A stretch of 64,000 bases of DNA from assembly GCA_018822885.1 (NCBI GenBank), contig JAHJJA010000047.1, positions 5,384 to 69,383 of the forward strand. The letters run 5' to 3'. Position numbers and translations under genes: made by a program. A model generated the notes under the pieces. The model saw only the letters and a list, made by a program, of their open reading frames with translations, was not told where the DNA came from and did no database searches. Below are positions 794 to 41,013 of the stretch, piece by piece. Origin of the DNA: Candidatus Omnitrophota bacterium (GTDB taxonomy: Bacteria; Omnitrophota; Gorgyraeia; Gygaellales; Profunditerraquicolaceae). Numbering within the stretch: position 1 is the first letter of the stretch; each line of letters begins with the position of its first letter.

Positions 794-914
794 AATATTA
801 CAAGTCGCTAGCAATAGCGAACGAGGTGTTTTTAAGTCAAGTTGTTCATAAATTCAAGACCCGATCTTAGGATGAGGTATAGATGGAGTAAGATCGGGTC
901 TTGTAAGCATAGCT

Positions 915-4752: not shown

Positions 4753-4985
4753 GCCGATGTAGCTTAAGCCCCGAAAGGCGCTTCGTGCATTCGGGTCCCG
4801 ACTTACGACATTAGATGTCGTTTGGTCGGAACGTCGGGATTGGTAGATTGGTGGTAGGATTATCATATGCCGATGTAGCTCAGCCCCGACGCTCGCTTAC
4901 GCTCGGTCGGGGTCCCGACTTCCGACACTAGATGTCGTTTGGTCGGAACGTCGGGATTGGTAGATTGGTGGTAGGATTATCATAT
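4753..4985 (+). repeat. Two tandem ~116-nt structured repeat units abutting tRNA-Thr, each starting with a copy of the tRNA's first 15 nt
   Basis: Unit 1 is 4753-4868 and unit 2 is 4869-4985. Both begin GCCGATGTAGCT(T/C)A, matching the tRNA-Thr 5' end. Each has a GC-clamped hairpin (CCCGAA-N14-TTCGGG in unit 1, CCCCGAC-GCTCGCTTACGCTCG-GTCGGGG in unit 2) whose stem changes are compensatory. A second hairpin TCCCGAC-N30-GTCGGGA follows in both. Confidence 0.7.
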
Positions 4986-5058
4986 GCCGATGTAGCTCAG
5001 TTGGTAGAGCAGCGCTTTCGTAAAGCGCGGGCCGGAGGTTCGATCCCTCTCATCGGCT
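4986..5058 (+). tRNA. tRNA-Thr (anticodon CGT)
   Basis: Acceptor GCCGATG/CATCGGC, D arm GCTC-AGTTGGTA-GAGC, anticodon stem GCGCT/AGCGC with loop TTCGTAA, T arm GGAGG-TTCGATC-CCTCT. CCA not encoded. Confidence 0.85.
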
Positions 5059-16400: not shown

Positions 16401-16735
16401 CGCGGGGTGGAGCAGCCTGGTAGCTCGCAAGGCTCAATGTCTCGCCTATACATGTATGGGCGTACGATGGGCTATTCAGCCGGTAACGGCTGAAGGATAG
16501 TCGGTCAAATTCGGTGAAGCCCGAAAGGGTAATACCGAGCCAAGCCTGCGCAGTTTTGCTTTGCAAAACGAAGCAGCACAGGAAGGTGTAGAGACTAAAC
16601 GGCCGAGACCCTTCTTAAGGAAGGGCCAAGATATAGTCCAGACTACGAATTTGCCAGAGTAGCGGCAAAGCGGCGAAAGCCGAAGTAGTATGCATAACCT
16701 TGAGGTCATGCGTTCAAATCGCATCCCCGCAACCA
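16401..16735 (+). tRNA. Initiator tRNA-fMet (CAT) interrupted by a group I intron in the anticodon loop
   Basis: Exon 1 (16401-16434) is CGCGGGGTGGAGCAGCCTGGTAGCTCGCAAGGCT, with C1 mispaired against A72, A11:U24 and the D arm of bacterial initiator tRNA. Exon 2 (16693-16735) supplies CATAA, CCTTG, AGGTC, the T arm ATGCG-TTCAAAT-CGCAT, CCCCGCA, discriminator A and CCA. Mature loop would be CUCAUAA. Confidence 0.8.
16435..16692 (+). ncRNA. Group I intron (IC3-like), 258 nt, no ORF
   Basis: It follows exon U33 and ends in G. It contains P7-P8-P7'-like AGACTAAACGGCC...CCCTTCTTAAGGAAGGG...GGCCAAGATATAGTCC. It also contains GTCAAATTCGGTGAAGCC, CCGAGCCAAGC and GAAGGTGTAGAGACTA, which I recognise from the Azoarcus tRNA-Ile and cyanobacterial tRNA introns. 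Many GNRA-type hairpins are present. Confidence 0.7.
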
Positions 16736-19868: not shown

Positions 19869-19918
19869 TCAAGACCCGGTCTTGACTTTCTATCTCAATG
19901 TTAAGACCGGGTCTTGAC
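19869..19918. repeat. Pair of 18-bp near-palindromic sites
   Basis: 19869-19886 is TCAAGACCCGGTCTTGAC and 19901-19918 is TTAAGACCGGGTCTTGAC. They are reverse complements of each other, each self-complementary, and related to the hairpin arms at 856-905. Confidence 0.6.
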
Positions 19919-24838: not shown

Positions 24839-25240
24839 ATGGCCATGGAAATCACCGAAGTAAGGGTAACTCTTAAGGATTCTCCCGATAAAAAACTAAA
24901 GGCATACGCGACTGTTACTTTTGACAATGCCTTTGTCGTCAGGAATATAAAAGTAATAGAGGGCTCTACGGGGCTTTTTATCGCAATGCCTTCTAGAAAA
25001 ATAAAACAGCCCTGTCCGAAATGTAATTTTAAGAACGAATTACGCAGTAAATATTGCAACCAGTGCGGCGCGACTTTGCCTGTGACTAGCCGTCCTATGC
25101 CGGAAGAGACTCAAGGTAGTTCGCAGTTGGAGCACAAAGATATAGCTCATCCTATCACCCAGCAGTTCAGGGAGCTTCTGCAGAAGAAAGTCCTGGAAGC
25201 GTATGAGCAGGAAAAGCTAAAGAGCCCAGCCGGTTTTTAA
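24839..25240 (+). CDS. spoVG: SpoVG-family protein with an inserted zinc-ribbon
   Basis: The N-terminus matches SpoVG (ITEVRVTLKDSPDKKLKAYATVTFDNAFVVRNIKVIEGSTGLFIAMPSRK), and the C-terminus has DIAHPI. About 40 aa are inserted containing CPKC-N13-CNQC. Confidence 0.7.
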   Translation: MAMEITEVRVTLKDSPDKKLKAYATVTFDNAFVVRNIKVIEGSTGLFIAMPSRKIKQPCPKCNFKNELRSKYCNQCGATLPVTSRPMPEETQGSSQLEHKDIAHPITQQFRELLQKKVLEAYEQEKLKSPAGF

Positions 25241-25269
25241 GGCAGGATGACCGCAAGTTCATATTTGCC

Positions 25270-25389
25270 CGGTAGTGTCCCGCCGTAGTATTGGGTAGCA
25301 AGCGGGATCCCGACCGAGCGTAAGCGAGCGTCGGGATAATGGTAGCACAGGGCGGCCTCGCAAAGTATGAGGAACTTAGAATTTAGATT
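25270..25389 (+). repeat. tRNA-Gln-flanking structured repeat, copy A (upstream)
   Basis: It contains CCCGC-N18-GCGGG, then a TCCCGAC-CGAGCGTAAGCGAGC-GTCGGGA hairpin. The loop is the reverse complement of the unit-2 loop at 4891-4905. Confidence 0.65.
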
Positions 25390-25460
25390 TGGGATGTCGT
25401 CCAATGGGAGGACACGAGAATTTGGGTCTCGCTATCATGGTTCGAATCCATGCGTCCCAA
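25390..25460 (+). tRNA. tRNA-Gln (anticodon TTG)
   Basis: U1-A72 acceptor TGGGATG/CGTCCCA, D arm GTCC-AATGGGA-GGAC, anticodon stem CGAGA/TCTCG with loop ATTTGGG, T arm CATGG-TTCGAAT-CCATG. G37 is slightly unusual. Confidence 0.75.
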
Positions 25461-25486
25461 TTTGATAAGATGATTGTCAAGGTTCT

Positions 25487-25590
25487 CCCGCCGTAGTATT
25501 AGGTAGCAAGCGGGATCCCAACTGAACGCAATAGAAGTTGGGAATCCTTGCCGGGCAACGGTCGATTTCAGACGTCCCAACTAACACAGA
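25487..25590 (+). repeat. tRNA-Gln-flanking structured repeat, copy B (downstream)
   Basis: Same CCCGCCGTAGTATT(A/G)GGTAGCAAGCGGGAT head as copy A. The hairpin is TCCCAAC-TGAACGCAATAGAA-GTTGGGA, covarying with copy A. It ends GGTCGATTTCAGACGTCCCAA, a degenerate copy of the tRNA-Gln T-arm and acceptor 3' end. Confidence 0.65.
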
Positions 25591-25596
25591 AAAACT

Positions 25597-26850
25597 ATGA
25601 AAAAAAATATCGCGGTTATAATTTTAGCTGCTGGTAAGGGCACGAGGATGAAATCCGACTTGCCTAAAGTTCTTCATCCTGTTTGCGGCAGGCCTATGCT
25701 TGATTATGTGCTTGATCTGGTTAAAGAATTAAAAGTCAAAGAGACGGTTTTAGTGCTGGGGTACAAACACGAGCAGATCGCCAAACACATAGGGCCGGGC
25801 ATAAAGGTGGCAGTCCAGAATAAGCTTCTTGGGACAGCCGATGCCATAAAGGCAGGTCTGTCAAAGCTTAAAAGTTTTAAAGGCACAATACTTGTTCTTT
25901 ACGGGGATATTCCGCTGTTAAAGAAAGACACGGTCAAGAAATTACTTGATCATCAAACAAAGAATGAGATCGATGCGACTATCCTGACCGCGGAATTGGC
26001 CAAGCCCTCGGGTTACGGCAGGATACTTAGGGACAAATGCGCGGCGATACGCGGTATCATCGAAGAGAAGGATGCCGATGATGTGGATAAACAGATAAAG
26101 GAGATCAATACCGGCATCATCTGTTTTGATAAAACAAAGTTAGCCGGCTGTCTGAATTTAGTCAAGCCGAACAACCGCAAAAAAGAATTTTACCTCACCG
26201 ATATAATCGGGATATTCTATAAGAAAGGCTACGTGATAGAGAGCGAGAAGGCGGCGGATATCGATGAGGCCTTAGGTATCAACTCTAGGGTAGACCTTGC
26301 AAGGGCAAATGCGTTTATGCAGAAGAGGATCAATGAAAAATTCATGAATGACGGGGTGAGTATTGTCGATCCCAATTCGGCTATTATAAACTACGGGGTA
26401 AAAATCGGCCGGGAGACCACGATTTATCCCTTTACATTCATCGAAAAAAATGTTAATATTGGCAAGCGCTGCTCAGTCGGCCCTTTTGTACATCTTAGGG
26501 AGGGCACAGAGCTAAAAGACGAAGTTTTAATAGGTAATTTCCTCGAGATTACCCGTTCGAAGATCGGCAGCAAAACAATTGCCAAACATTTTTCATATAT
26601 CGGAGATTCCCGCGTGGGTAAGCTTGTCAACATCGGCGCAGGGACGGTGACCGCTAACTTTGACGGCCAAAACAAGAATGTCACTGTGATCAAAGACGGG
26701 GCATTTATCGGGTCTCACACTGTTTTAGTCGCTCCGGTAAAAATCGGCAAGCGCGCCGTGACAGGCGCTGGCTCGGTCGTGCTTAAAAACAGGGATGTTG
26801 CAGACGCAGAGGTAGTCTGCGGAGTGCCGGCAAGAAGCATAAAAAAATAA
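25597..26850 (+). CDS. glmU: Bifunctional UDP-GlcNAc pyrophosphorylase / GlcN-1-P acetyltransferase
   Basis: LAAGKGTRMKS nucleotidyltransferase N-terminus plus C-terminal left-handed beta-helix hexapeptide repeats. Confidence 0.85.
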   Translation: MKKNIAVIILAAGKGTRMKSDLPKVLHPVCGRPMLDYVLDLVKELKVKETVLVLGYKHEQIAKHIGPGIKVAVQNKLLGTADAIKAGLSKLKSFKGTILVLYGDIPLLKKDTVKKLLDHQTKNEIDATILTAELAKPSGYGRILRDKCAAIRGIIEEKDADDVDKQIKEINTGIICFDKTKLAGCLNLVKPNNRKKEFYLTDIIGIFYKKGYVIESEKAADIDEALGINSRVDLARANAFMQKRINEKFMNDGVSIVDPNSAIINYGVKIGRETTIYPFTFIEKNVNIGKRCSVGPFVHLREGTELKDEVLIGNFLEITRSKIGSKTIAKHFSYIGDSRVGKLVNIGAGTVTANFDGQNKNVTVIKDGAFIGSHTVLVAPVKIGKRAVTGAGSVVLKNRDVADAEVVCGVPARSIKK

Positions 26851-40773: not shown

Positions 40774-40952
40774 TGATTTGGTGCGGGACAAGCGCATCGA
40801 TTATTCGCGCCTGTAGCTTTAGTGAAGCCATAACTTATGGAGCGTAAGCGAACATAAGTTATATGGCTGAACTAATCCCGCACCAATAGGCATTAAACAT
40901 ACTTTATTGATTTGGTGCGGGACAAGCGCATCGATTATTCGCGCCTGTAGCT
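40774..40952 (+). repeat. 134-nt structured repeat unit plus partial second copy fused to the 5' end of tRNA-Arg
   Basis: TGATTTGGTGCGGGACAAGCGCATCGATTATTCGCGCCTGTAGCT occurs at 40774 and again at 40908, where it runs into the tRNA. Inside the unit, TTGGTGCGGGA (40777-40787) and TCCCGCACCAA (40876-40886) flank a hairpin GCCATAACTTATG-GAGCGTAAGCGAA-CATAAGTTATATGGC. Confidence 0.65.
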
Positions 40953-41013
40953 CAATGGATAGAGCGCTAGCCTTCGGAGCTAGGCGTTGGAGGTTCGACT
41001 CCTCCCAGGCGCA
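40941..41013 (+). tRNA. tRNA-Arg (anticodon TCG)
   Basis: Acceptor GCGCCTG/CAGGCGC, D arm GCTC-AATGGATA-GAGC, anticodon stem CTAGC/GCTAG with loop CTTCGGA, T arm GGAGG-TTCGACT-CCTCC. Confidence 0.85.

Follow-up and report, generated by a model that had tools for sequence, protein, structure and literature searches.

The spoVG-glmU gap and its tRNA pieces

In the 64-kb window, by which we mean the whole stretch of DNA that was analyzed, spoVG (24839-25240) and glmU (25597-26850) are separated by a 357-nt gap (25241-25596). Inspection of the whole gap revealed tRNA pieces and hairpin modules alone, grouped around a single tRNA-Gln(UUG) that was called by ARAGORN and by Rfam (RF00005, 54.1 bits) (Table 1). 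The intact gene is separated from the tRNA pieces by 39 nt on the 5' side and by about 10 nt on the 3' side. A search of Rfam at E values up to 10 across the gap, which had been proposed for finding tRNA-like structure in the flanks, matched the intact tRNA-Gln alone and returned nothing for the flanks. Folding of the whole region gave a z score of -2.65, and its long-range structure carried no information. An exact-protein look-up of the 133-aa SpoVG ORF returned no record, probably owing to a difference in start codon. Because the first tRNA piece begins 25 nt after the spoVG stop codon and no promoter-like site was found 5' of the pieces, these are almost certainly co-transcribed; the one promoter-like match lay inside the intact tRNA gene.

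Table 1. Positions of the tRNA pieces, modules and related features in the window.
Feature	Position	Strand	Content or context	Basis
Two tandem units: tRNA-Thr nt 1-15, two-hairpin module, TTGGTAGA and 21-nt linker	4753-4985	+	5' of intact tRNA-Thr(CGU), 4986-5058	Direct-repeat analysis
5' piece of disrupted type-1 tRNA-Gln(UUG), nt 1-13, TGCCCGGTAGTGT	25266-25278	+	Acceptor 5' strand, U8/A9, D-stem 5' strand	Match to intact type-1 genes
Module copy A, 59 nt, in D-loop between nt 13 and 14	25279-25337	.	Hairpin 1, CCCGC..GCGGG (25279-25306); hairpin 2, TCCCGAC-CGAGCGTAAGCGAGC-GTCGGGA (25308-25336); boundary ambiguous by 1 nt	Repeat/hairpin analysis
Type-1 tRNA-Gln nt 14-25, AATGGTAGCACA	25338-25349	+	D-loop and D-stem 3' strand	Match to type 1
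Filler and leader of the intact tRNA, 3' end ..TTAGAATTTAGATT	25350-25389	+		Alignment with L135
Intact type-2 tRNA-Gln(UUG)	25390-25460	+		ARAGORN; RF00005; same gene in L135, L140, L002 and L003
Native trailer of type-2 tRNA, TTTGATAAGA	25461-25470	+		Common to L135
Type-1 tRNA-Gln positions 40-54, TGATTGTCAAGGTTC	25471-25485	+	Anticodon-stem end, variable loop, T-stem 5' strand, T-loop TTC	Match to L099 and L001 type-1 genes
Module copy B, about 56 nt, in T-loop between C56 and G57	25486-25541	.	Hairpin 1, CCCGC..GCGGG (25487-25514); hairpin 2, TCCCAAC..GTTGGGA (25516-25543), last 2 nt overlapping the resumed tRNA sequence	Repeat/hairpin analysis
Type-1 tRNA-Gln 3' end, GAATCCTTGCCGGGCAA	25542-25558	+	T-loop GAAT, T-stem 3' strand, acceptor 3' strand, discriminator	Match to type 1
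Degenerate 3' remnant of type-2 tRNA-Gln, GGTCGATTTCAGACGTCCCAAC	25560-25581	+	Immediately 5' of glmU	Counterparts in relatives
45-nt perfect direct repeat (33-nt leader and tRNA-Arg nt 1-12) around 89-nt palindrome-bearing insert	40774-40940	+	5' of intact tRNA-Arg(UCG), 40941-41013	Repeat analysis

By its GlmU sequence, the window belongs to Candidatus Omnitrophota. Comparison of the gap with that of relatives (loci of relatives and metagenomes that we collected carry L-numbers) revealed that tRNA-Gln(UUG) is present there as one gene in two clearly distinct sequence types. Type 1 (TGCCCGG..CCGGGCA) was found in L005, L136, L142 and L143, and type 2 (TGGGAYG..CGTCCCA) in L002, L003, L135 and L140; depending on the relative, one or the other is the sole occupant of the gap. 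When the two upstream pieces of the window were joined, the resulting nt 1-25 were identical at 25/25 positions to the intact type 1 of L099, L136, L142 and L143, and the last 32 nt, joined from the two downstream pieces, agreed at 31/32 positions with the type-1 genes of L099 and L001. Against the resident type-2 gene, the same joined pieces agreed at only 16/25 and 22/32 positions. In the type-1 gene of the window the anticodon arm lacks 14 nt, and one half of the gene lies on either side of the intact type-2 gene. Judged by its sequence, the second tRNA-Gln(UUG) gene of the locus, of type 1, is dead, and the functional tRNA-Gln is presumably encoded by the intact type-2 gene. Since the flanks of both module copies are type-1 sequence, copy A is an insert in the D-loop (13|14) and copy B an insert in the T-loop (56|57).

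These assignments modify what the sequence-only reading had proposed for the flanks, namely that they mimic halves of the tRNA. Sequence of tRNA halves is present, but it belongs to the type-1 paralogue and not to the resident gene. The head shared by the two copies, which had been taken for a collapsed acceptor and D arm, turned out to be hairpin 1 of the inserted module, with the true tRNA pieces lying just outside the modules. The sequence at 25560-25581 was correctly recognized as a degenerate copy of the T-arm and 3' acceptor end of tRNA-Gln. A type-2 3' remnant also stands directly before glmU in L001, L143 and L099, and in the latter two its T-loop still carries a large insert; L135 has no counterpart. 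This remnant is a third, older layer of the locus. The origin of the filler upstream of the intact gene is ambiguous from the sequence: its 3' end is similar to the leader of the clean L135 locus and weakly similar to the lost type-1 anticodon arm. As a captured spoVG 3' end of an incoming allele, the filler (25350-25388) was rejected, local alignments being no better than those of shuffled sequences (p = 0.45 and 0.24).

Two further contigs of the same species (L133 and L134) showed an arrangement identical to that of the window. The empty site that was sought in related genomes was found in L135, the closest other relative found (GlmU 84% identical), where the spoVG stop codon is followed by 14 nt, the type-2 tRNA, 17 nt and glmU. 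Clean loci were also present in L136, L140 and L142; the decoration is therefore dispensable, which argues against the earlier suggestion of a decorated tRNA precursor. L099 showed the mirror image of the window: an intact type-1 gene is preceded by two type-2 5' pieces whose D-loops each carry a module and is followed by a type-2 3' piece with a T-loop insert.

Partial tRNA copies beside an intact tRNA are the classical signature of integrase-mediated elements. A phage, an integrative and conjugative element or an island might have duplicated part of tRNA-Gln as attL and attR and later been lost, and the degenerate 3' tRNA-Gln end at 25560-25581 fits such a history. The short distances between the pieces and the intact gene do not, and the housekeeping order dxs/transketolase-ispE-spoVG-tRNA-glmU-prs-rplY-pth was kept in all relatives, with no integrase. 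Furthermore, the D- and T-loops of the second tRNA-Gln contain the repeats, which are not at tRNA ends or at the edge of an island, the fragments are of another tRNA-Gln type than the intact gene, and the same 60-nt module occurs in-frame in UvrA, RpoC, FtsK and ComM. The integrase account is thus already largely refuted, and we consider it very improbable. What stands of the element footprint proposed earlier is that a repeated hairpin element is involved; an integrative element, and with it a duplication of the attB type, does not agree with the kept synteny and with the lack of anything foreign between the tRNA pieces.

A family of two-hairpin palindromic modules

Copies A and B are two-hairpin palindromic modules of about 56-59 nt. 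Their shared head, CCCGCCGTAGTATT(G/A)GGTAGCAAGCGGGAT, was found at two places in the 64 kb and nowhere else, namely 25279-25308 and 25487-25516 (0.00 expected from shuffles), and lies in a 46-nt direct repeat that is 89% identical, confirming that the copies form a repeat. The covariation noted earlier for the stems of hairpin 2 was also confirmed, TCCCGAC..GTCGGGA in copy A and TCCCAAC..GTTGGGA in copy B being related by a compensatory G-C to A-T change. The pattern TCCCRAC..GTYGGGA was found at four places in the window, each adjoining a tRNA (0.00 expected), and the 64 kb contain five copies of the module and one variant. All three further decorated places in the window are tRNA loci. The hairpin of copy A, whose loop had been matched to the tRNA-Thr locus before, recurs there in inverted orientation at 4885-4917 (33 nt, 97% reverse-complementary), and the hairpin loop of the tRNA-Arg insert, GAGCGTAAGCGA, equals the loop of copy A. 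The same hairpin or loop is thus common to the Gln, Thr and Arg loci.

A metagenome scan with the two-hairpin module pattern matched at least 120 stretches, and the collected loci contain at least 74 double modules. The location statistics below refer to 71 double modules on low-GC contigs, where the module is unmistakable, among the matches listed. With the same pattern, viral contigs gave three matches, which were chance hits in GC-rich coding DNA. The modules have a median length of 63 nt (range 44-86 nt) and a common plan, in which arms of the form (T/C)CCCGAY..RTCGGG(A/G) are followed by TCCCGAC..GTCGGGA. The dominant arms are TCCCGAC/GTCGGGA (88/148 arms), CCCCGAC/GTCGGGG and TCCCGAT/ATCGGGA. 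The inner stems are variable yet complementary, the caps are often loops of the GNRA or UUCG type, and folding energies range from about -21 to -50 kcal/mol. While the stems vary, a loop motif is conserved: the asymmetric CGAGCG.AAGCGAGC was oriented in the same way with respect to the module centre in 12/12 occurrences (11 modules, one of which has the motif in both hairpins). The module is therefore an inverted (head-to-head) doublet of a polar unit, and some modules, such as those in L084, L037 and L115, are fully self-complementary. GGGATCCCGA palindrome arrays were observed in L105, L129 and L095, with no transposase seen beside them; L129 resembles a eukaryotic retroelement contig.

Twenty-nine of the 71 double modules (41%) lay within 200 nt of an intact tRNA, compared with 5.6% expected (p = 4e-18); 22/71 (31%) were within open frames 150 codons or more in length, and 20/71 elsewhere. 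The tRNA-linked modules were nearly always located within a partial copy of the adjoining tRNA. In an upstream class, 19 modules sit in the D-arm of a 5' piece that stands 5' of the intact tRNA, and the piece ends with a D-loop remainder of 6-25 nt after the module, followed by a short linker. In a downstream class, 13 modules sit in the T-loop of a 3' piece that stands 3' of the intact tRNA. The Gln locus of the window follows the same plan on both flanks. Dead copies of full or nearly full length, adjoining an intact gene of the same anticodon and amino-acid identity, were found for tRNA-Met (L100), tRNA-Ala (L020) and tRNA-Gln (L001); each of the Met and Ala copies has both D- and T-loop modules. 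The relation of the palindromes to tRNA genes is unusual and regular.

Insertion junctions were clean (10|11, 12-14, 15|16, 18|19 and 56|57), with an ambiguity of 0-1 nt, and there is therefore no target-site duplication. When 87 tRNAs in the module contigs were examined by a stringent test, a 5' copy was present upstream of 13 and a 3' copy downstream of 10. All but one of these fragments were interrupted by a palindrome, either the module or a member of another small hairpin family, for example TCCGCC..GGCGGA. Identity between fragment and intact gene usually ended at the ends of the mature tRNA and reached into the leader in a few cases (33 nt for Arg, about 49 nt in L003). The 5' pieces were often identical to the intact gene.

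Inside ORFs the frame is kept, and the module is translated mostly as ..PTPxGVGVPT..VGK. Compared with the Geobacillus structure of UvrA (PDB 2r6f), the module adds 20 residues as a clean insertion; RpoC, FtsK (in a linker) and ComM are further in-frame hosts. Among 120 close ComM orthologues, the module peptide was present in some and absent from others. The ComM contig belongs to Patescibacteria, and its protein is 100% identical to an NCBI protein of 'Candidatus Paceibacterota'. Across at least two phyla of tiny groundwater bacteria, members of the family interrupt tRNA genes and are carried in-frame by essential proteins.

A probable palindromic DNA element rather than an RNA part or a recombination site

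The modules and partial tRNA copies could instead be functional parts of the tRNA precursor that act at the RNA level in processing, stability or regulation, with decoy 5' halves competing for the acceptor 3' strand or with GNRA- or UUCG-capped hairpins shielding the transcript. Consistent with this, the architecture recurs across many tRNAs and lineages, hairpin stability is very high, the loop motif is conserved despite variable stems, 5' pieces often match the intact gene exactly, and the pieces share a transcript almost certainly. Against it, hairpin stability on the tRNA sense and antisense strands was higher in 14 and 17 cases, respectively (p = 0.86), G-U pairs numbered 29 and 21, with no excess on the sense strand, and modules were present in both orientations as well as in-frame inside ORFs. 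Together with the clean loci of relatives and the lack of an Rfam match in the flanks, these results make a functional precursor improbable.

The type-1 gene might also be a functional split, intron-containing or permuted tRNA, whose modules are removed or whose halves are joined in trans, since palindromic modules could bring the ends together. Splicing out the modules does give a full tRNA for tRNA-Gln type 2 of L001 and tRNA-Met of L100, but these are only 2/71 clusters in which removal restored a predicted tRNA. At the locus of the window, the anticodon arm is short of 14 nt, and the two halves are separated by an entire tRNA gene. Signals of a ribozyme or a bulge-helix-bulge were not found, and translation of the modules in-frame in ORFs indicates that they are not removed from mRNAs. 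We therefore give very little credence to such a gene.

The resemblance of the copy B stem, TCCCAAC/GTTGGGA, to the attC consensus RYYYAAC/GTTRRRY, and the position of the intact tRNA between two direct module copies, raise the idea that the hairpins are attC-like or other tyrosine-recombinase sites with the tRNA as their cassette. The dominant arms of the family, TCCCGAC/GTCGGGA, miss the attC core at two positions, the conserved housekeeping neighbourhood has neither a cassette array nor intI, and modules lie inside tRNA loops and ORFs. The caution of the sequence-only reading in not calling these hairpins attC was thus justified, and recombination sites of this kind are barely conceivable here.

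The absence of strand asymmetry, the in-frame occurrence in ORFs and the fixed polarity indicate a selfish DNA palindrome of the REP/REPIN/RPE kind and argue against RNA motifs, introns and recombination sites. We conclude that copies A and B are probably (a probability of about 0.78) a small non-autonomous REP/RPE-like palindromic DNA element that inserted in a displaced tRNA-Gln paralogue.

Proposed mechanism and relation to known elements

We propose that the palindromic element moves as DNA and that an enzyme acting in trans mobilises it. Both the hairpin structure of the units and the absence of target duplications hint at a single-strand mechanism like that of IS200/IS605 elements or RAYTs. 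In a weak test with phmmer, an E. coli RayT query gave no match among 3944 stop-to-stop segments, drawn from about 0.75 Mb of collected loci. The element may preferentially target tRNA genes in their D- and T-arm DNA. Insertion would kill the tRNA copy that is hit, and hence only insertions beside an intact copy of the same tRNA would survive. The dead copy may then lose the half that faces the intact gene, which would leave a 5' piece with its module upstream or a module with its 3' piece downstream.

The erosion of the inner side is a step that we infer from these arrangements, and some observations do not favor a passive process. Dead 5' pieces stop 6-25 nt past the module, which is suspiciously regular, and identity that stops at mature tRNA ends is not predicted by plain tandem duplication with random deletion. 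Pre-existing tandem tRNA duplicates should also be rare in such small genomes, which counts against the model. Where 5' pieces are identical to the intact gene, function or gene conversion could be responsible as well. Several models could account for the partial tRNA duplications: a tandem duplication that was then hit by an insertion and eroded, a Campbell-type or partial 'patch' duplication, template switching provoked by hairpins, and RNA-templated or retro-copy rescue.

Because identity usually stops at the mature tRNA ends, the bracket architecture might reflect a mechanism that couples palindrome insertion to the re-creation of a tRNA-sized intact copy, and not passive decay; we put this forward as a rather doubtful proposal. 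Such coupling could come from target duplication during insertion by a single-strand transposase that recognizes D-/T-arm hairpins of tDNA, or from repair of the broken gene on a mature-tRNA or retro-copy template. If true, it would be a previously undescribed way for tiny-genome bacteria (Omnitrophota and Patescibacteria) to preserve essential single-copy tRNA genes that a selfish palindrome attacks.

REP sequences fall into superfamilies tagged by GTAG or CGTC (Di Nocera et al. 2013, PMC3733652). The Rickettsia RPEs belong to the CGTC class, whose members dimerize head to head, are also located in ORFs and have no dedicated transposase (PMC3733652). Like REPs, REPINs and BIMEs, the present modules are short, dispersed, multicopy stem-loop units that form inverted doublets with a fixed polarity, make no target duplication and have copies inside ORFs. 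Unlike REPs and REPINs, they show no enrichment of a tag: 74/286 hairpins had CGTC at the 3' foot and 74/286 had GACG at the 5' foot, where about 25% is expected per extra base, and GTAG was not enriched either. Their arms and loops are unrelated to those of published families, as judged by the descriptions of these, and the modules are not mainly extragenic, given the shares that are tied to tRNAs or lie in ORFs. The hosts, Omnitrophota and Patescibacteria, are phyla absent from the list of the 2013 survey (PMC3733652).

The modules resemble RPEs in being palindromic selfish DNA that sits in-frame in conserved protein genes and adds a peptide segment; RPEs are classed with the CGTC repeats (PMC3733652). 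They differ from RPEs in their phyla and in being shorter, and the dominant, regular tie to partial tRNA copies observed here has no mention in the RPE account (PMC3733652).

Fragments of tRNA beside an intact tRNA of the same identity are described for prokaryotes (PMC9897764). As in att duplication, the fragments of the present loci adjoin an intact tRNA of the same amino-acid identity. In contrast to it, there is no integrated island, a 60-nt palindrome lies inside the D- or T-loop of the fragment, and the intact gene has 5' fragments on its upstream side and 3' fragments on its downstream side. A keyword search of the open-access literature yielded no description of palindromes in tRNA D- or T-loops with bracketing fragments. 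In the same literature, keywords for Omnitrophota tRNA introns, palindromes or MITEs in tRNA genes and REPINs with tRNA likewise did not lead to a description of this phenomenon, and no such element was found for Omnitrophota or Patescibacteria.

If our interpretation is correct, a widespread REP/RPE-like palindrome family exists in Omnitrophota and Patescibacteria, which are very small and mostly uncultured bacteria. It would account for tRNA pseudo-fragments in these genomes and for tRNA genes that standard annotation misses, and it would add to the essential proteins RpoC, UvrA, FtsK and ComM short peptide inserts that matter for alignments, phylogeny and structure prediction. The modules would provide natural presence/absence markers for strain-level evolution, and they would raise the questions of how tRNA D- and T-loops come to be targeted by a palindrome and how essential tRNA genes present in a single copy survive it.

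Intron-containing and split tRNA genes, with bacterial group I introns or the archaeal bulge-helix-bulge (BHB), are similar to the present loci in that tRNA genes are interrupted at defined loop positions. The modules differ from these in being neither ribozymes nor BHB elements, in lying in D- and T-loops and in interrupting genes that are mostly incomplete. A true group I intron is present elsewhere in the window, within a tRNA(CAT) gene at 16438-16657.

Duplications and inserts at tRNA loci

The tRNA-Arg(UCG) locus is the cleanest long case resembling a 'target duplication'. Its 45-nt perfect direct repeat consists of a 33-nt leader followed by tRNA nt 1-12, and the junction of the insert with the second repeat copy is spanned by a TCCCGCACCAA/TTGGTGCGGGA hairpin. 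The tandem units upstream of tRNA-Thr(CGU) share 98% identity over 91 nt; in each, tRNA nt 1-15 are followed by a two-hairpin module, then by TTGGTAGA and finally by a linker of 21 nt, TTGGTGGTAGGA, which is D-loop-like in appearance.

Two Omnitrophota MAGs (L002 and L003) carry tRNA-Gln loci with an architecture identical to that of the module-bearing loci, whereas the insert belongs to a different family: it contains a pair of TTGAGCAC..ATAGCGAAA repeats together with a CCTTG..CAAGG hairpin whose arms covary. In three collected loci (L119, L043, and L132), palindromes with TCCGCC..GGCGGA arms make up a second small family, which likewise occurs as doublets; in partial tRNA copies these palindromes occupy T- and D-loop positions identical to those of the module.

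Features of the window and of collected loci (L)
Feature	Sequence	Position	Strand	Remark
tRNA-Thr(CGU) locus	window	4753-5058		two tandem 117-nt units upstream of tRNA
tRNA-Arg(UCG) locus	window	40774-41013		89-nt insert between copies of 45-nt direct repeat
Initiator-like tRNA(CAT) gene, CGCGGGG...CCCCGCAACCA	window	16401-16735	+	anticodon loop split by group I intron
Long hairpin CAAGACCCGATCTTA..TAAGATCGGGTCTTG	window	855-903		just upstream of tRNA-Phe
Long hairpin TCAAGACCCGGTCTTGA..TCAAGACCGGGTCTTGA	window	19869-19917
5' tRNA piece (nt 1-17), then AT-rich insert	L002	3375-3490		upstream of type-2 tRNA-Gln
5' tRNA piece (nt 1-17), then AT-rich insert	L003	3707-3810		upstream of type-2 tRNA-Gln
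Module in-frame within ComM/YifB	L016	463-518		Patescibacteria contig
Module in-frame within UvrA	L111	268-321
Module in-frame within RpoC	L120	5367-5426
Module in-frame within FtsK linker	L104	6961-7023

Further palindromes and module copies in protein genes

The two long hairpins of the window may represent another small palindrome family. Closely spaced GGGATCCCGA-type palindromes form arrays in six collected loci (L013, L118, L129, L095, L105, and L038). Because L129 contains a reverse-transcriptase-like ORF with a YADD motif and may be eukaryotic in origin, some of these arrays may be unrelated satellites.

Among the protein genes with in-frame copies, the module-derived peptide of ComM was present in only some of 120 close orthologues.

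Sequence variants at spoVG-tRNA-Gln and an intron-split tRNA

The D-loop of the intact tRNA-Gln (~25411) reads AATGGGAGGAC in the window and AATGGTAGGAC in both the same-species contig L133 and L135, the closest other relative. A second difference between the window and the same-species contigs L133 and L134, in the 3' remnant, is GATTTC versus GAGTTC. In this lineage, SpoVG (24839-25240 in the window, and also in L133 and the relatives L142 and L143) has an internal insert resembling a zinc ribbon, CPKCNFKNELRSKYCNQCG, with a weak Pfam match to Zn_ribbon_RanBP.

The intron-split tRNA(CAT) gene received no ARAGORN call; its intron matched Rfam RF00028 with 58 bits at 16438-16657.
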